A DNA stretch of 64,000 nt from a virus. The notes below the pieces were generated by a model, which was not told the DNA's origin, made no database searches, and worked only from the letters and a program-made list of their open reading frames with translations. The position numbers were made by a program, and so were the translations under genes. Positions 31,837-63,380 of the stretch are shown piece after piece; position 1 is the first letter of the stretch, and every line of letters begins with the position of its first letter. The stretch covers positions 32,001 to 96,000 of IMG/VR virus record IMGVR_UViG_3300048919_000048; one strand, written 5' to 3'.

Positions 31837-32124
31837 ATGTTGAAGGTATTGTCGAAGTTTGCTAGAGTCATTCTTCTGCTGACGGCACTGATTGTCCTTA
31901 ACCCGCACAGGATTATCCTGATCCCGTTCAGCCTGCTCGCTGCCTTCGGTAGCTGGCTGGCATGGAAACTGGAGGACGGTTGCCAGTGGGTTGCTGACAA
32001 AGTGGCTGTCGCAAAAGAGAAGTTCTGGTTGTTTGGGAAGCCGATCAACAAGAAGCTCGATGAAGAGATGGCTGAGTTAAACCGTCTTGTGGCGGAGGTG
32101 GATAAGAAGTTTAAGGCCGACTAA
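31837..32124 (+). CDS. Membrane protein
   Basis: Hydrophobic N-half. Confidence 0.7.
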   Translation: MLKVLSKFARVILLLTALIVLNPHRIILIPFSLLAAFGSWLAWKLEDGCQWVADKVAVAKEKFWLFGKPINKKLDEEMAELNRLVAEVDKKFKAD

Positions 32125-53704: not shown

Positions 53705-55126
53705 TTACACTCCTACAGCAGAAGAGGTCATCGGGGTCTGAGCGTTAGTGCTCTGGCCCGCCGGACGATCCAGTACAACGGCGGCGCGGATCTTGACGTA
53801 GTGCAGGGAGTTGTTGTACACAAGCTCTACCTTCACGTCACGCAGGATACGTGCAGCGAGGTCATTCGTCGGGATCTCAGCGCGTTTCGGAATGGTGATC
53901 GTCGGGTCATAAGACACTTTGTTTGTAGTGTCATAACCAGTCAGGATAGCACCGTTACGAATACCGATGTTGATCGGGTTGTTCATCAGTACAGACTTCA
54001 GAACTGGAAGGTCTTCGTCGCTCATCTTCATGGACAGGCCCATGTCAGAACGGCGTTTCATGTACGCAAACACGGATTCTTCCATACGGAACTTAACCCA
54101 GTGGGAGAAGCGAATCACGTCAACGTACTGACCGGATGAAGTTTTACCTTCGATGTAGCTACCAGTGCCGTACAGGCTGCGGTAGATGTTGGCGTTACGA
54201 GACCAAGCGTTTGAGCGCTGGGTGTCTGATCCAACAAACGGGGTCATTCCCGGCATCGTTTTCAGGTGCAGAGAGTCGCCGTATGATGGGTCGTTCGCAG
54301 CCATCGCGCCGATAACGGAACCTTCAGTGAAGCTTACGTCAGCGCCAGCATCGGAAGTTCCCAGAGAGTCGTAGCTCAGAGCCTTCAGCGTGTCAAACAC
54401 AGAAGAGGATGAGTTCTCAGGGGCGTATGCATCAGCATCCGTGGAGTTGTAGATGTGCAACTTGTAGTTCGCCTTAGCAAACTCAGCAGCAGCAACGATG
54501 TCTGCATCAGCACGGGCTTCTGTCGCCAGGAAGTACCAGTTATGGTTCTCAGCGATGACGGAAGGCAGAACAGTCGCCACGGTCTCAGCAGAGTCGTTAA
54601 CGATCTTGTAGGTGCCCGCGCCTTTACCAACGCTAACGATGTTGTCGTCAACTGCGGTCACTGTCACATAAGTGCCAGTTGCAACACCAGTAACTTTCCC
54701 GGTCAGGTCAGCATCGTTGGTGATTGCGTCTGCCAGCGCCGTAGCGATCTGGGCAGGTGTGTTGCCAGGCAGTACGTTAATTTTAACAGCCTTGACCATC
54801 TTATTCAAGGTGATATTAACGACAACCTGTTCGGTGTTTGTGGTCCCGGTGAAATCCACCTTGGTAGAGCTATTAGACATACGTCCGATACCAACACGGC
54901 GAGGGGCAAAGTTCCCTGAAAATGCGTTGGTGGCGAACTGGTACGCCGGGGAGCCTACAGCGAACCCATCAGCAACCATCCCTTCAGTGGACACGTAGTA
55001 ACGAACACGCTCTGGGAAGTTGTTGTGGATTGCCAGGAACATCGGGGTTTCAAAGCCAACGGTGTCGATTGGTTGAGTGCCAAGGCTAACCTCAACGTCA
55101 ACAACCTTGTCTTGATATTCAGCCAT
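53705..55126 (-). CDS. Tail sheath protein
   Basis: ERVRYY.S...M..DGF...SP.Y; EG.T.SGQYVDV; R.L.DV...Y...LH.V.I. Confidence 0.9.
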   Translation of the reverse strand: MAEYQDKVVDVEVSLGTQPIDTVGFETPMFLAIHNNFPERVRYYVSTEGMVADGFAVGSPAYQFATNAFSGNFAPRRVGIGRMSNSSTKVDFTGTTNTEQVVVNITLNKMVKAVKINVLPGNTPAQIATALADAITNDADLTGKVTGVATGTYVTVTAVDDNIVSVGKGAGTYKIVNDSAETVATVLPSVIAENHNWYFLATEARADADIVAAAEFAKANYKLHIYNSTDADAYAPENSSSSVFDTLKALSYDSLGTSDAGADVSFTEGSVIGAMAANDPSYGDSLHLKTMPGMTPFVGSDTQRSNAWSRNANIYRSLYGTGSYIEGKTSSGQYVDVIRFSHWVKFRMEESVFAYMKRRSDMGLSMKMSDEDLPVLKSVLMNNPINIGIRNGAILTGYDTTNKVSYDPTITIPKRAEIPTNDLAARILRDVKVELVYNNSLHYVKIRAAVVLDRPAGQSTNAQTPMTSSAVGV

Positions 55127-55186: not shown

Positions 55187-55894
55187 TTACTCCCCCGTCT
55201 TGTCACTGATAAGCGCTGGCTTATCAATAACCGGAGTTTCCAAACAAACCGACACGATCTTGTCGTTGTAGACGATCGGAGGATTTGGCTTTGGTGGTAG
55301 ACCAGGATCATCACCGCCGGGCTTGACACCCACGTCATAGTCTGCTTCAATACCAACAGGTGGGCCAGACGTGTTCCCGGTTTCGATCCCGATGACAATG
55401 TGCTCGATATCCTCGAACGTACCGATATCTTTCTCCACGAACGTCGTGTTGAAGGTGATAATGGTCCGCGCCCGATTCTCGAACAATTGCTGGTTCAGCG
55501 GGACACGCATTCGAGCAATATTCGATGTGGATGAGTACGCATAGGGAGAACCCGTCGGGAAGTATTTCTCACGAAGGAACGGCAGGCCGAATGCCTGATG
55601 CACCCGGGACAGTGCCCAGTGAGGTTTCCCACGGTAAGCGGTGAGGGTATAGCTGGCGGTGTAGTTGTGGGCCGTATGCACGACTCCGTCTTCATCCACC
55701 ACTTCAGCAGTTGCCCAGTCGAGAGGGGTAAGCAATGACAGGTCCACGAGGATGTAAGGCCCTTCCGGTTTTGGAATGGTCTCATCAGCTTCAACGACAT
55801 CATAGCCCGTTACGTCCAAACAGAGACGACCGATTGCCTTGGTCAGTGCTCCCATCACGACATCTGAATTTGTAAAGTCCAGAAGGTCTGCCAT
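55187..55894 (-). CDS. Tail terminator / neck protein with C-terminal extension
   Basis: P.P.GPYI, LTAYRG, FE.RA; immediately upstream of sheath. Confidence 0.75.
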   Translation of the reverse strand: MADLLDFTNSDVVMGALTKAIGRLCLDVTGYDVVEADETIPKPEGPYILVDLSLLTPLDWATAEVVDEDGVVHTAHNYTASYTLTAYRGKPHWALSRVHQAFGLPFLREKYFPTGSPYAYSSTSNIARMRVPLNQQLFENRARTIITFNTTFVEKDIGTFEDIEHIVIGIETGNTSGPPVGIEADYDVGVKPGGDDPGLPPKPNPPIVYNDKIVSVCLETPVIDKPALISDKTGE

Positions 55895-57498: not shown

Positions 57499-58308
57499 TT
57501 AGTTGGTGTACAACTTGATTTGAACTTCAAGGAATGTTAAGTTCATATCAACCCCGGTGGTATTGACAAGCCACAGGGTACAACCATCCACAGTAAAGGG
57601 GTCGGTTACGGTGTGGGTCCAAGAGTCCAAGGAGATTGCACCCCTGTCCAGTGATGTACCGGAAACCTTTACCCTCGTGGCTGCTGCCAGTTGAGTTGTA
57701 CCGTCGGCACGACGCAAGTCAACACGCCATTCACGGGCTTGGTTAGCACCGCCTGACAGTTCGCCTTGAAGTCGAACAACAAATCGGACATCTCGCCAGC
57801 CGTCCACTGCTGGGAACTTGGCTACCCCAGTCGAGGAATTGAAATCAATCTGTGCGTTACTGTCCGCCAACAGTGCCCAACCAGGCGCGGTCCCGATGTT
57901 AAGGGACTGTCCATTTGTGATGGTGATTGCGTTAGTTGTTCTTCGAACATCAATGCTGAAGACGGCACCATCATCTCCCGCCGGGCCTTGTGTTCCTTGA
58001 GTCCCTTGCGGACCTTGGATTCCCTGAATACCTTGGTCGCCTTTATCTCCTTTCGGCCCAGTAGCACCAGTCAGTCCAGTGTCTCCCTTCAGACCTTGTT
58101 CACCCGCCGGGCCTGTAGGGCCTGCCGGGCCAATTGGTCCTTGGGGTCCTGGGTCGCCAGGGTCTCCCTTATCCCCTTTTGGTCCCACAGTTCCTCCCCC
58201 GGAACCGATCGAGGCAAAAGGAATCATCGTCTCTGACTGGAGGTCATACAATGCATACCCAAAGTATACACCGTTTTGCTCTCCCGTAATACCTCTTAGT
58301 GTTGCCAT
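57499..58308 (-). CDS. Collagen-like fibre with C-terminal beta domain (head fibre?)
   Basis: About 24 G-X-Y triplets; AAGGAG RBS. Confidence 0.8.
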
Positions 58309-58351: not shown

Positions 58352-58747
58352 TTATGCTCCCGGAGCAAACAATCCTGTAGCCCTGATAGCAGCTAGCAGA
58401 TTGTTGAAATCCGCCATTGTCGGATCAGCGGTGATATTTGGGAAATCTCCTTGGAGAACCCCACCACGCTGTGTTGTAGTTGGAACCTTATTCCCAGCCA
58501 TTGCTGTGGTTCCAGTTGTACCGATAACAAGGTCGGATGTTCCAGCGCCGATCGCTGAACGGGCAGTAGCTTGGTCTGCCCCAGCCGCGATAACAGCAGG
58601 TTTGTCAGTCACGTCAGCCCATGCTACAGAGCCGCCGCCACCGCTGCCTTCAAAAAGTTCAGTCAGGGTTTTAGTTTCCCCGGTTGCCTGATCCATGATC
58701 TGGTAACCAGTCAGTGTGCCGAGTGATGCACCGCCAATTGCTGCCAT
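58352..58747 (-). CDS. Head fibre / decoration protein
   Basis: V.W.DVTDKP, ARSAIGAGTS.L.IG...TTA.AG, DFN.LLA.IR..G. Confidence 0.75.
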   Translation of the reverse strand: MAAIGGASLGTLTGYQIMDQATGETKTLTELFEGSGGGGSVAWADVTDKPAVIAAGADQATARSAIGAGTSDLVIGTTGTTAMAGNKVPTTTQRGGVLQGDFPNITADPTMADFNNLLAAIRATGLFAPGA

Positions 58748-58748
58748 G

Positions 58749-59399
58749 TTATTCTCCTACAAAAGTAGTTGGGACTTCAGGGATGTCTGTGATGACAGAG
58801 GTGTCGTACACAGATTTTACGTAGGCCAGGAGGTTTTGGTGGACCTTCCCGGTTGCGACCATAATCGCATCAATCTTCGCCACTGCGTCTGCGGAAGGCA
58901 AAGTAAGGGTTGAAAAATCCGTTTTACGGATTAGAATGTCTTTGTCAGGATGGGCTTGAGCATACGCCTTGATGGTGTCGAGGTTGATAAGCTCACGAGG
59001 CTCAACCGAGAAAGTATCCCCGTCAACAGTTACCCCGGCAGACAGGTCTGCGGTATACTGCTGGTAGGCACGGCTACGATGATCTTCTTTGGCCCGGACC
59101 AAGTTCTCTGCGATCTCTTCAGGATAGAAATCACGAGCTACCCAAGTCTTGTACCAGAGGTCATCGTCAGGATTTAGTTTGGGAGTTCCCTCTGTGACAA
59201 CATCACCGACAGGGATCTCTGAGTCATGAACCATGCAATAACCCCACAGGTCACGCATGTCAGCTTCCCATACATAAGAGCCGATACTGACGTTGGTATG
59301 CTCTTTCAGGAAGTCACTGAGGTAAACGGGGTATTTCATGTCGGACATGCGAATCATCGGTGTCCAAGCATAAACCTTGCTGGTAGGATCTACAGCCAT
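58749..59399 (-). CDS. Fibre-associated protein (assembly chaperone-like)
   Basis: AAGGAG RBS; YPV....F...H.N.S, V.EG.P....W.K.W; follows collagen fibre. Confidence 0.65.
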   Translation of the reverse strand: MAVDPTSKVYAWTPMIRMSDMKYPVYLSDFLKEHTNVSIGSYVWEADMRDLWGYCMVHDSEIPVGDVVTEGTPKLNPDDDLWYKTWVARDFYPEEIAENLVRAKEDHRSRAYQQYTADLSAGVTVDGDTFSVEPRELINLDTIKAYAQAHPDKDILIRKTDFSTLTLPSADAVAKIDAIMVATGKVHQNLLAYVKSVYDTSVITDIPEVPTTFVGE

Positions 59400-59412
59400 T
59401 TGGATCTCCTTT

Positions 59413-59433
59413 AAAGGGGCCGAAGCCCCTTTT
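59413..59433 (-). terminator. Terminator-like hairpin
   Basis: AAAGGGGC-TTCG-GCCCCTTT. Confidence 0.65.
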
Positions 59434-59437
59434 GGTA

Positions 59438-62400
59438 TTAGTCTACAGTCATCGCCTGAACACCCGTCAGGTCCGTGCCGTCCCAGAAGAACGTCAGGAT
59501 GGTACGGGTTGTACCAAGCGCAGGCTGGGTTCCGTTTGACCAAGCCATCGGGGTAGGCCACGTCATAGAGCCGCCTTTACCGATGAACTTAACAACTACC
59601 GTCATCGCACGGCCTGCTGGCAGGTTGGAGATGGTAATTGTCTTGGACGTGGTTCCGTCAACGGTGAACACGTTAGACACAGCAGCATCCAGCGCACCAG
59701 TGGCAGACATCACACGGAGGTCGTAACGGTCAAGCTTCTTCCACGCACCGTTTGAACGGACGTAGTAGCCGGAATCCTGAGGCGCTTCAAGAACGCTGAT
59801 CAGTGTCCAGTCACCGTCGATACGGGAATACTGCTTACCATCCTTAGGTGCATCGTAGACGTTACCACCACCCATGTGGCCCAGAGAACCCCAAGTGGTT
59901 GCGTTTGTCTTCAGGAAGAACTCAAGGGTAGAGGAGTTCAGGAAGTAATCCCCGACACGTCCATCAGCAGGGGTAGGGTTACGGGCAAACACGATCCACA
60001 AGGAACCTTGGTCACCTTTATCACCTTTAACACCCTGAGGTCCGGTAGGACCTGTGTTACCTTGAGGACCAGTAGGTCCGATTGGACCTTGGATAGGACC
60101 CAAGTTTTCGTAGGCAGAACCCGTCCAACCCCAGAAATCGCCATCGATCAGGTAACCCTGTCCCAGCGTCCCGGTTGGCGGCAGTTCAGAACTGCTGTTC
60201 AGCTTACCGATGATTTCTACACCCGGACCCATGTCACCTTGAGGACCCTGAGGACCGATATCCCCCTTGTCACCCTTAGGACCTTGTGCCCCAGTGGCAC
60301 CAGTTTCACCTGTGGCACCTGTAGGACCAACTGGACCACGAACAACGCCCATGTTAACCCAAGTGCTGCCGTTCCAAGAGAAGCCTGTTCCGGTGTCCTC
60401 GGTCACGTAGTAATCACCGACGGTGTTACCAGATGACGGCAGGGAGCCTTGGTTAGGGACAGTCCCTTTAGGGATTACTCCTGCACCATTATCGCCAGTG
60501 TCGCCCTTCGGACCAGCAGGTCCGGTATCACCAGTGTCGCCTTTAGGTCCGGTGTTACCACGTGCCATCCCGGTATTAACCCACTGGAGGCCGTCCCAAG
60601 CAAATCCTTCACCTGTGTCAACAGTTGTCCAGAAGTCACCCTTCACGTTGTCGGTGGTAGGGAGGGAAGCTTCGTTAGGAACAGTGCCTTTCGGATTCAG
60701 GCCAGTACCTTGTGGACCAACGTCACCTTGGTCACCTTTTGGACCTTGTTCGCCCGCCGGGCCAGCAGGTCCGGTAGCGCCAGTGTCACCTTTAGGCCCG
60801 GCTGGACCCTGCGCTCCAGTATCACCCTTCGGACCACGAACTGGTCCAACGTTCTGCCATGCAGTACCGTTAAAGATGTACAGGTCGTCACCGATCAGCC
60901 ATGCATCACCCGTCACCGGATTTGCAGGAAGATCTGCTTCGCTCGCTTTCTCACCAAGGATAGCTACACCTTCACCAACAGGACCTTGAGGACCTGTCAG
61001 GCCAGTGTTACCACGTGGACCCTGAGGGCCAGTGTCACCTTTTGCACCTTTCAGGCTGGCAAGATATTCGTTCAGCGAACCTGTGAATCCAGCTTCAACC
61101 GCAAGAGCATAGTTGTCCTTACCAGTTGCGCCCGGGTCGCCTTTCACGCCCTGAGGGCCTTGAGGGCCAGTATCGCCCGTATCACCTTTAGGGCCTTGGA
61201 ATGCCCCGAGGTTCTCCCAGTTTCCGTTACCAGTTGATACCCAAACATCCGTGCCGATCAGGTATGCATCACCTGCATCTGCTCCGGCAGGGAGACTACC
61301 TTCGTCTGCTACCTTACCGAGAATGTTGATGGCGTTGGCGTTTGTACCGTCTACACCGGGATCACCCTTATCGCCCTTCGGCCCGGTTGGTCCGGTTGGT
61401 CCGATGAGAGAGTTCAGGAAGTCAACCTGAGAACCAGTGTGACCGTTATCCAGCCAAACCTGATACGCAGACTTACCTTCCGGCCCGACTTGGCCTACAG
61501 TTTGCCATTTATCGGTGTCACCTGTCCAGACATACATCTTGTCTTGGATGATGTAGCAATCGCCGTTGCTGTTGCCTTCCATTGGGAGGAAGGATGGATC
61601 AGGGAAAGATCCGAGGATCTGGAGACCGATGCCGTCAGCCCCTTTCAGGGAACTCAGCCATTCGTCCTCTGTCCCAACGAAGCCTGCGTTAACTGCGACT
61701 TCATACGCAGACAGACCCTGAGGACCAGCAAAGCTGCCGAGGTTTTTCCACTGCTTAACGCCACCCTCTTCTACCACCGTCCAGAAGTTCTGGTTGATGA
61801 CGTAAGTGTCGCCGAGTTCCATATCCGCAACTGGTGGCAACTGGGTAACATCACTCAGTTGGTCGATGACGTTGATGCCGATCCCTGCTGGGCCTTTAGG
61901 ACCTTCCGGACCACGGGCACCCTGTGCCCCGGCTGGGCCAGCGGGACCTGTTGCACCTTGAGGGCCAGTTTCGCCCTGAGGACCTTGTGGTCCTGTCAAA
62001 CCTTCTGGGCCTTCCGGACCCTGTGGTCCTGTTGGACCAATCGGACCTTGCGGCCCGGTAGCACCAGTGTCGCCCTTATCACCCTTGACAGTCTCGACGA
62101 AAATACCGTCAGACTTCATCTCGATCTTGTTCGCCGGGTCAGCAGAGATTTTGGTCTCTTGCGGGCGAACATACATAGCGCCTTGGCGGATTTCGAGCAT
62201 GTTGTCCTGTGCAGTGGACACAGGGACATTCAGGCCAGCAGAACCAGCCTTCAGGGCGTTCTGAGCACTTGGATCAACAATCACATCAATCTGAGTCTTG
62301 GCCTTCCCGGTAGGGTCAGCTTTGATATCCAGAGTCTTGTTTGGTGACGTGGTTGATACGTTGACAGGATCGGAGTATACTCCTTCCAGCGCTGGGTTAC

Positions 62401-62719
62401 CAGCGTTAGCTGCATCCTGTGCAGAAATGTACGTTACCGTGTTCCCTTCTTTTGAGGAAATCTTGGTGTCGGAACTTCCAACAAAGAGGCCCTGTTCGTC
62501 TGAGGAGCTTACCACCTGGAGGCGGTTACCTGCACGACGGGATACGTTGACATTTGCCAGAAGAGGAGAGGATTGAGTACCATCACCGATCAGTGTGGTA
62601 GATACGGTGTCTTGTGTCTCGATCCCCGTGAAAGGGGCACCAGACCCACCTGAGGTGCTCGTAGAAGGATCTGGTACGGTAACCAGTACCTCTACGACCT
62701 TATCTTCGTATTGTGCCAT
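59438..62719 (-). CDS. Large collagen-like fibre (whisker/collar fibre candidate)
   Basis: Multiple G-X-Y blocks interrupted by G..I.G......LP...GD.Y...W.W....W.N.G domains; SAY..A...GF.G repeats; two foldon-like motifs. Confidence 0.85.
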   Translation of the reverse strand: MAQYEDKVVEVLVTVPDPSTSTSGGSGAPFTGIETQDTVSTTLIGDGTQSSPLLANVNVSRRAGNRLQVVSSSDEQGLFVGSSDTKISSKEGNTVTYISAQDAANAGNPALEGVYSDPVNVSTTSPNKTLDIKADPTGKAKTQIDVIVDPSAQNALKAGSAGLNVPVSTAQDNMLEIRQGAMYVRPQETKISADPANKIEMKSDGIFVETVKGDKGDTGATGPQGPIGPTGPQGPEGPEGLTGPQGPQGETGPQGATGPAGPAGAQGARGPEGPKGPAGIGINVIDQLSDVTQLPPVADMELGDTYVINQNFWTVVEEGGVKQWKNLGSFAGPQGLSAYEVAVNAGFVGTEDEWLSSLKGADGIGLQILGSFPDPSFLPMEGNSNGDCYIIQDKMYVWTGDTDKWQTVGQVGPEGKSAYQVWLDNGHTGSQVDFLNSLIGPTGPTGPKGDKGDPGVDGTNANAINILGKVADEGSLPAGADAGDAYLIGTDVWVSTGNGNWENLGAFQGPKGDTGDTGPQGPQGVKGDPGATGKDNYALAVEAGFTGSLNEYLASLKGAKGDTGPQGPRGNTGLTGPQGPVGEGVAILGEKASEADLPANPVTGDAWLIGDDLYIFNGTAWQNVGPVRGPKGDTGAQGPAGPKGDTGATGPAGPAGEQGPKGDQGDVGPQGTGLNPKGTVPNEASLPTTDNVKGDFWTTVDTGEGFAWDGLQWVNTGMARGNTGPKGDTGDTGPAGPKGDTGDNGAGVIPKGTVPNQGSLPSSGNTVGDYYVTEDTGTGFSWNGSTWVNMGVVRGPVGPTGATGETGATGAQGPKGDKGDIGPQGPQGDMGPGVEIIGKLNSSSELPPTGTLGQGYLIDGDFWGWTGSAYENLGPIQGPIGPTGPQGNTGPTGPQGVKGDKGDQGSLWIVFARNPTPADGRVGDYFLNSSTLEFFLKTNATTWGSLGHMGGGNVYDAPKDGKQYSRIDGDWTLISVLEAPQDSGYYVRSNGAWKKLDRYDLRVMSATGALDAAVSNVFTVDGTTSKTITISNLPAGRAMTVVVKFIGKGGSMTWPTPMAWSNGTQPALGTTRTILTFFWDGTDLTGVQAMTVD

Positions 62720-62777: not shown

Positions 62778-63380
62778 TTACAGTGCAGCTTTCAGATCTT
62801 CCAACATTGCATCGAAAGTCTTAGCCTTGCTCAGGGAGATTCCCAGAGTCAGGGCGTAGGATTCCAGAGCGGCCTTTGCAGCAGCTTTCTTGGTATCGTC
62901 ACGCAGAGTTTCTGCATGGGCGAGGATCTCTGCCTTTTCTTCATCAGTGCGAGAAGAAACAGCTTTTTCCTCAACTTCTTCCTTGACTTCTGACGTTGGT
63001 TCGATTACAGTTGTCTGTACCAAACCAGCGAGAGGAGAAACTTCCTCAACGTCAGGAGGGATAACGTTGGCGCGGGCCACACGGATCTCTTCGACATTCG
63101 CCAAGAATTTCTCTGGGGTCTTAGGTGTCTCATGGAAGAAAATGAGGAACGCCGCACCCTTACGGACAGAGGCGACAGTGTTGATTCCCAACGCCGTCAT
63201 TTCCTCGATCTGAGTCAGGAATTCATACAGGTTACGGCCCATGACGAGTTCATTGTCATAGGAATAAAGGAAAGGTGCCAGGCGGGCTGATGCATCTACA
63301 TCCAGTTTCGGCAGGTATTGACCGAAGAACTTCAGCATGTGATATTCGCTCTGGAACACTTCCATATGCGGTTGTGCCAT
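62778..63380 (-). CDS. Hypothetical protein downstream of capsid gene
   Basis: AAGGAG RBS; C-terminal K..LE.YA...GI.L.K.K.FD.M. Confidence 0.8.
   Translation of the reverse strand: MAQPHMEVFQSEYHMLKFFGQYLPKLDVDASARLAPFLYSYDNELVMGRNLYEFLTQIEEMTALGINTVASVRKGAAFLIFFHETPKTPEKFLANVEEIRVARANVIPPDVEEVSPLAGLVQTTVIEPTSEVKEEVEEKAVSSRTDEEKAEILAHAETLRDDTKKAAAKAALESYALTLGISLSKAKTFDAMLEDLKAAL

Follow-up and report, generated by a model that had tools for sequence, protein, structure and literature searches.

The DNA examined here is a stretch of 64,000 nucleotides from the virus record IMGVR_UViG_3300048919_000048 (positions 32,001 to 96,000 of that record; hereafter the window), and it encodes a 1093-amino acid collagen-like fibre whose N-terminal arm is a close copy of the N-terminal arm of the tail sheath protein, the strand known as S4 in the sheath of phage phiTE. 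The fibre arm conserves the same residues as S4, and for this reason we propose that it is a strand-donating anchor for an S4-type socket on the tail, one that would tie the flexible fibre to the virion; we give this proposal, which is drawn from sequence, about an even chance of being right. A further copy of the strand occurs in the tail terminator protein. The copy in the fibre is the new part, as the terminator half was already known. The source of the window is a Certrevirus-type (phiTE/CR3-like) myophage; the DNA is 83-84% identical to that of Certrevirus phages, for example phiTE, CR3, CR8 and Enterobacter phage F1M1E, and the head-neck-tail block of the phage lies on the minus strand. 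The three genes that carry the motif, and the parts of their products that matter here, are as follows.

62719-59438, minus strand: gene for the collagen-like virion fibre, 1093 amino acids (open reading frame, PHROG 3904 and Pfam Collagen)
62672..62719, minus strand: N-terminal arm of the fibre, residues 1-16, copy of sheath S4 (motif, pair score and alignment)
62633..62671, minus strand: linker of the fibre, residues 17-29, variable and P/S/T/G-rich (15 orthologues)
55894-55187, minus strand: tail terminator gene, 235 amino acids (PF23961; PDB 9cc7_F)
55190..55387, minus strand: C-terminal extension of the terminator, about residues 170-235, Pro-rich (sequence and description of the phiTE structure)
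55247..55270, minus strand: terminator residues 209-216, copy of the S4 core (motif search; shuffle test)
55126-53705, minus strand: tail sheath gene, 473 amino acids (PHROG 205; PDB 9cb9_A)
55082..55120, minus strand: sheath residues 3-15, strand S4 or N-arm (phiTE range, PMC11972413, transferred by near-identity)
53774..53908, minus strand: sheath residues 407-451, socket strands S1 and S2 and C-arm S3 (ranges from PMC11972413)

The fibre open reading frame (ORF) starts with MAQYEDKVVEVLVTVP, which is followed by a P/S/T/G-rich stretch, and the sheath ORF starts with MAEYQDKVVDVEVSL. When the whole genome (151,943 bp) was searched in six frames, the pattern Y-x-[DE]-K-[VI]-V-x-[VI] was found at three sites only, namely the N terminus of the sheath, the C-terminal tail of the terminator and the N terminus of the fibre, and the six-residue core DK[VI]VxV was likewise confined to these sites. 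The terminator site, YNDKIVSV at 55270-55247 on the minus strand, falls within the Pro-rich C-terminal extension. In ungapped BLOSUM62 comparison with sheath residues 2-15, the fibre N terminus scored 43 and the runner-up 14-mer genome-wide scored 25; among all 55,945 pairs of ORF N termini, the sheath-fibre pair came top with a score of 41, compared with 26 for the next pair. The terminator copy is weak on the full-arm score (22), and the score of its eight-residue core was reached by 0/1000 shuffles of the extension. Taken together, the match between sheath, fibre and terminator is far beyond chance.

We also compared the DNA behind the two N-terminal arms. Among the first 15 codons of the sheath and fibre genes, 12 differ, with 31 of 45 bases identical, and the 60 bases upstream of the two genes are unrelated (8/60 matching). 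Given the differences at synonymous sites and the unrelated sequences upstream, the fibre arm reflects conservation at the protein level and no recent copying of DNA. An earlier sequence-only reading of the window had placed the three peptides on the minus strand, remarked on the different codons at most sheath and fibre positions, and attributed the conservation to the protein level. The ORFs and their translations bear out all three placements, the codon count agrees, and the motif is kept in every fibre orthologue examined.

The sheath belongs to the DUF3383 family and has the type-2 sheath fold, as it is named in the phiTE paper (PMC11972413). It matched the phiTE sheath (PDB 9cb9_A) at E 1.2e-288 over residues 1-473, phi92 gp130 at E 1.2e-53 and PHROG 205 at E 1.6e-113; our own Pfam scan gave no match for the sheath, and precomputed annotation places PF11863 in many of its homologues. 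Cryo-electron microscopy of phiTE revealed a four-stranded hinge ("handshake") sheet that joins the rings of the sheath lattice. Three subunits contribute to this sheet: one provides the socket with its strands S1 (407-413) and S2 (427-436), another inserts its C-arm as S3 (443-451), and the N-arm of yet another supplies S4 (E3-L15) (PMC11972413). The strand assignment given here is that of the paper. Since the sheath copy of the motif coincides with the phiTE E3-L15 range, the motif corresponds to S4, and its identification in the sequence-only reading as the handshake arm of the sheath was correct, the two sheaths being near-identical. The arm consensus of the sheath family, MA(E)YxDKVVDVxVxLGTQP, is conserved across 116 homologues.

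The arm was present in all fibre orthologues examined, which came from CR3, W70/UPEC06, SSBI34, Kashira/ABPH49 (Serratia and Acinetobacter phages) and from 15 metagenomic clusters whose identity in the N-domain goes down to 51%. It is also present in the fibres of the Seunavirus phages NINP13076 and EspYZU15, where the sequence next to it differs; tblastn with fibre residues 1-210 left NINP13076 unseen and detected in EspYZU15 a short internal repeat only. A search with fibre residues 1-40 returned 22 candidates, all of them close orthologues. Conservation of the arm extends over at least six phage lineages, in contrast to the drifting linker next to it. The fibre alignment has M1, Y4, D6, V8, V9, E10, V13 and P16 without exception and K7 and L12 with few exceptions, and mean conservation is 0.86 for the arm versus 0.63 for the linker; the 13 residues after the arm keep their P/S/T/G/A composition and vary in sequence and length among 15 orthologues. 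The fibre arm and the sheath consensus have in common the buried face (V9, V11, V13 and V/L15) together with Y4, D6 and K7. Position 10 is Glu in the fibre and mostly Asp in sheaths, and position 12 is a conserved Leu in fibres and variable in sheaths. Judged by sequence, the fibre carries a terminal peptide of the S4 pattern on a flexible tether.

Four relatives that lack the fibre (nomo, KB57, phi92 and pEa_SNUABM_55) have the motif in the sheath only. In the corresponding gene block of pEa_SNUABM_55, a long protein bears the N terminus of a small head-fibre-like family instead of the arm; the phiTE member of this family, by synteny, is phiTE_217, the capsid protein "Pagoda". It thus looks as if the N-terminal anchor peptides encoded in this block were modular. 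A third match to the motif in W70 (record position 133033) lies inside a 128-amino acid non-structural ORF and was taken as chance. Aeromonas phage 2L372X (MK813938.1, 97457-97479) has a second match to a relaxed pattern, F-S-D-K-V-I-K-I, outside the sheath gene. The adaptor homologue of nomo (L004, 7795-8415), an Escherichia rV5-like phage with neither the fibre nor a terminator extension, has an extra N-terminal MAWYEDEEII followed by a Pro-rich tether; this peptide resembles the sheath arm loosely and out of register.

The fibre itself matched PHROG 3904 ("tail fiber protein") with 1232.8 bits over residues 18-1092 and the Pfam family Collagen with an E of 1.8e-32 (111 bits). Its gene is syntenic with CR3_008 and phiTE_215, and its kin in PHROG 3904 also include CB7_10, which mass spectrometry detected in CB7 virions with 39 unique peptides (PMC7344957). 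The detection of this orthologue establishes the fibre as a real virion component. From the N terminus, the protein consists of the arm, the linker, an N-domain of roughly 180 amino acids, eight Gly-X-Y runs and a C-terminal domain of 186 amino acids, and the linker or knot segments between the collagen runs measure 22 to 158 amino acids, five of them about 45. The eight runs contain 285 collagen residues, which would extend over about 82 nm if triple-helical (0.286 nm per residue). With the knots and end domains included, the fibre would be about as long as the tail, a rough estimate and not a measurement; the phiTE tail is about 102 nm. Such a length would allow a neck-anchored fibre to extend as far as the baseplate, the site of an unmodelled third fibre in phiTE.

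AlphaFold2 predicted four of the roughly 45-residue segments as small beta domains, with a predicted local distance difference test (pLDDT) score of about 75-83. In the monomer model of the whole fibre (mean pLDDT 46), the arm is unstructured, with a pLDDT of about 31, and shows no confident packing on the fibre's own domains, which in a model of such low confidence is weak evidence. A whisker of the T4 fibritin type was considered as the identity of the fibre and rejected: the Fibritin_C score of 20.4 bits is under the Pfam cut-off of 21 with no single stretch that passes, and the shaft is collagen-like and without a coiled coil.

The third copy of the motif lies in a protein whose core matches Pfam PF23961 (Phage_tail_terminator_9) with 76.3 bits against a cut-off of 27, and which over residues 2-235 matches PDB 9cc7_F, "PhiTE tail terminator protein", at E 3.7e-147. 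In phiTE, strands from the terminator extension take three places in the two hinge sheets nearest the head, those of S3 and S4 in the first sheet and that of S4 in the sheet between rings 1 and 2, and the ring 1 N-arm is held at a site other than its socket (PMC11972413). Capping of the sheath by strand mimicry in the terminator is thus already established, from the published structure of a near-identical phage, and the sequence-only reading, which gave it as known that terminator proteins cap the last ring by donating a strand, is right on this point (PMC11972413). The present sequence contributes the observation that a copy of S4 can be recognised in residues 209-216 of the extension; likeness to S3 in the extension was not significant in the shuffle test. 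The extension is present in Certrevirus terminators, where the CR3 version reads Y-H-D-A-I-A-Q-V. W70-like phages retain one strand of it, SSBI34 and Kashira have a short and dissimilar version, and the terminators of Seunavirus, rV5-like phages and Mydovirus have none.

The remaining genes of the block are listed below.

63380-62778, minus strand: conserved protein of 200 amino acids, no assigned function
59399-58749, minus strand: PHROG 4998 protein, 216 amino acids
58747-58352, minus strand: small head-fibre-like protein, 131 amino acids
58308-57499, minus strand: protein with a head-fibre-like N terminus and collagen repeats, 269 amino acids
57402-56875, minus strand: adaptor homologue, 175 amino acids
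56812-56351, minus strand: Neck1-type protein, 153 amino acids
56340-55894, minus strand: head completion protein, 148 amino acids
53701-53219, minus strand: tube protein, 160 amino acids

The PHROG 4998 protein (58749..59399), included here as context and only a possible partner of the fibre, is encoded alongside it in the genomes of Certrevirus, W70-like phages, SSBI34 and Seunavirus, and its orthologue CB7_11 was found in virions (PMC7344957). Orthologues and the PHROG match place its start at the ATG at 59399, which gives 216 amino acids; the mechanical ORF list has instead a 270-amino acid GTG ORF (58749-59561, minus strand) that overlaps the 3' end of the fibre gene and contains the true ATG. 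The AlphaFold2 model (pLDDT 96) has a beta-rich N-domain followed by three long helices. Foldseek returned nothing for this model at E ≤ 0.001, and VIA-align returned generic helical-hairpin matches only (prefoldin, Z 7.5 over residues 92-204). Among representatives, 191 relatives were found at E ≤ 0.001, and the protein is usually encoded beside an arm-bearing fibre.

The products of the next two genes, of 131 and 269 amino acids (58352-58747 and 57499-58308, minus strand), both match PHROG 21621, over residues 1-83 and 7-69, respectively. The shorter protein also matches head-fibre families, and collagen repeats and a C-terminal domain are further parts of the longer one. phiTE_217, the counterpart by synteny, has been assigned as the "Pagoda" protein at the centre of capsid hexamers (PMC11972413). 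The PHROG 21621 pair, together with the synteny with Pagoda, suggests that the phage may carry two alternative hexamer decorations. On the other side of the fibre gene, between it and the capsid gene, lies the gene for the 200-amino acid protein (62778-63380, minus strand). This protein gave no match at E ≤ 0.01 in our own Pfam scan; its homologue in a related contig (L016, 7990-8643) has a precomputed Pfam match to PF26097 (Phage_Inh_N), and the C-terminal 44 residues of the window protein match weakly a PHROG described as "minor head protein inhibitor of protease".

If the fibre arm is an anchor, it would add to, or substitute in, an S4-type socket on the tail, and the invariant proline followed by the variable, flexible tether would link it to the body of the fibre. 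Because Seunavirus terminators lack the extension, the S4 sockets of the top ring should be free in those phages and would be the obvious site for the fibre. In the phage studied here the terminator should hold the top sockets, so that the arm would have to compete for them, add at an edge or bind elsewhere. Several arrangements can be envisaged: the arm may occupy part of the sockets and be averaged away by the sixfold (C6) symmetry imposed on maps; it may join the hinge sheet as a fifth, edge strand; it may use another S4-binding surface, the N-arm of ring 1 being itself held outside its socket; or it may act during assembly only. We also put forward, tentatively, a more general proposal, which we regard as possible and no better than that: the S4 arm would be a portable address tag that plugs contractile-tail appendages into sheath sockets at the head end, such that in Seunavirus it would fall to the fibre instead of the terminator to complete the top handshake sheet, and in Certrevirus the fibre would share the site with the terminator or compete for it.

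A number of observations weigh against the anchor. In phiTE the hinge sheets are complete in every ring, with no empty socket in the C6 maps, and the paper mentions no neck fibre, collar, whisker or collagen protein; the "third putative fiber" that it treats together with the fibre network of the baseplate is probably phiTE_215 (PMC11972413). The phiTE RefSeq record used in that paper contains three "tail fiber protein" genes, phiTE_215 (the collagen fibre), phiTE_236 and phiTE_241, and no PDB entry contains the fibre. The conservation of Leu12 in fibres at a position that varies in sheaths hints that the two arms bind in somewhat different environments. Nor did we find co-variation of the three motifs, for which the sequence-only reading had suggested looking: the motifs vary little, and such changes as occur are not correlated. 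The sheaths of Kashira and P0062 have Pro at position 8 where their fibres keep Val, and the P0018 fibre has Ile at position 7 where its sheath keeps Lys. The sequence-only reading had the fibre mimic the sheath arm and dock in this way at the neck-proximal ring; conservation of the S4 residues supports the mimicry, and the occupation of the phiTE sockets by the terminator (PMC11972413) argues against that docking site. It had also suggested that this mode of attachment was undescribed. In the part of the literature that could be searched, we likewise came upon no description of a strand anchor between fibre and sheath or of a sheath-arm copy on a fibre, and no neck fibres in Vequintavirinae; the mimicry by the terminator had been published.

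Some of these observations would be accommodated if the arm were an anchor whose acceptor is not the sheath hinge sheet but a connector protein, the PHROG 4998 protein or the capsid, with the likeness to S4 explained by common origin and by the general needs of an edge beta-strand. We judge this unlikely, although several lines of evidence point to it. All sheath sockets of phiTE are reported as filled (PMC11972413), Leu12 is specific to the fibre, the fibre gene sits in the head/neck block that runs from the major capsid protein to the adaptor, beside capsid-decoration genes, and the PHROG 4998 protein accompanies the fibre in most lineages and is present in virions; moreover, the flagellotropic phage 7-7-1 has fibres at capsid vertices that are held via N-terminal tails. 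However, the S4 residues (Y4, D6, K7 and the V9/V11/V13 face) have been kept over long divergence, which is hard to explain without the same socket, and a tblastn search of the genome with sheath residues 380-455, which cover the socket, detected no second S1-S2-like sequence. As for the individual acceptors, the PHROG 4998 gene is not beside the fibre gene in Kashira/ABPH49 and the P0018 contig, and the model of its product has no match to a sheath or gp25-type fold, its N-terminal beta domain having barely been tested; the icosahedral map of phiTE shows only Pagoda and a trimeric decoration protein on the capsid (PMC11972413).

The filled sockets of the mature phiTE tail could also be reconciled with a conserved arm if the arm worked transiently during assembly, at the growing end of the sheath or on free subunits, with the final attachment elsewhere or at low occupancy; in this role it could time the attachment of the fibre or compete with the addition of sheath or terminator. 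As insertion of S4 and S3 docks each new sheath subunit, a copy of S4 could by inference bind the uncapped end. We consider this reading improbable: the 39 peptides recovered from CB7 virions (PMC7344957) mean that the fibre needs some stable attachment, and relatives that lack the fibre build their tails without it. Finally, the similarity might have no function and be a chance match or the remnant of a past recombination event in which the beginning of the sheath gene was copied. Short Met-Ala N-terminal peptides are common and the terminator copy taken alone is weak over the full arm, but the sheath-fibre pair heads all N-terminal pairs, the motif is unique in the genome, the arm persists across the lineages and metagenomic clusters described above while the linker drifts, and the diverged synonymous sites and unrelated upstream DNA speak against a recent DNA copy. 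We therefore regard the functionless reading as close to refuted.

Mimicry of the sheath handshake strands is known for the initiator and the terminator, and if the fibre anchors in the same manner, this would be a new way of attaching an appendage. The anchor would then also give a position in the virion to a large Vequintavirinae protein that is widespread and that the phiTE atomic model does not include. Phages of the Certrevirus group are flagellotropic, so a flexible fibre of roughly 100 nm may have a part in the capture of the host. A 16-residue tag that loads cargo onto the tail would, if the anchor proves true, serve phage engineering.

The closest known system is the terminator extension of phiTE (pTE221, 9cc7_F; Hodgkinson-Bean et al. 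2025, PMC11972413), which resembles the fibre in that both are look-alikes of a hinge strand borne on a flexible tether by a protein other than the sheath. The two differ in that the terminator copy is C-terminal and on a hexameric cap, whereas the fibre copy is N-terminal and on a 1093-amino acid trimeric collagen-like fibre; the fibre copy is closer to S4 in sequence, and insertion into the sheet has been seen for the phiTE terminator. In the terminators of phi92 (the gp129 hairpin), Milano (gp18), R-type pyocin, XM1, 7-7-1, phage 812 and T4 (gp15), a C-terminal arm contacts or augments the top sheath ring, mostly by beta-sheet augmentation that resembles the contacts between sheath subunits. 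These proteins are caps that end the tail and not fibres, and a near-identical sequence copy of the N-arm has not been reported for them. The sheath initiator (T4 gp25/TssE type; phi92 gp139 and the phiTE sheath initiator, SI) participates in this kind of sheet too, at the opposite end of the sheath, but it supplies an S1-S2-like socket and accepts arms, whereas the fibre would supply the arm.

Among appendages, T4 fibritin (through domain III of gp13), the collar-whisker complex of Bas63/Sf14 and XM1 gp40 are comparable to the fibre in being trimeric or oligomeric, N-terminally anchored at the head-tail junction and encoded near neck genes. These known neck fibres, however, bind neck proteins by folded domains or by a collar "rope" and not through a copy of a sheath strand, and they are coiled-coil or immunoglobulin-like, whereas the fibre of the window is collagen-like.

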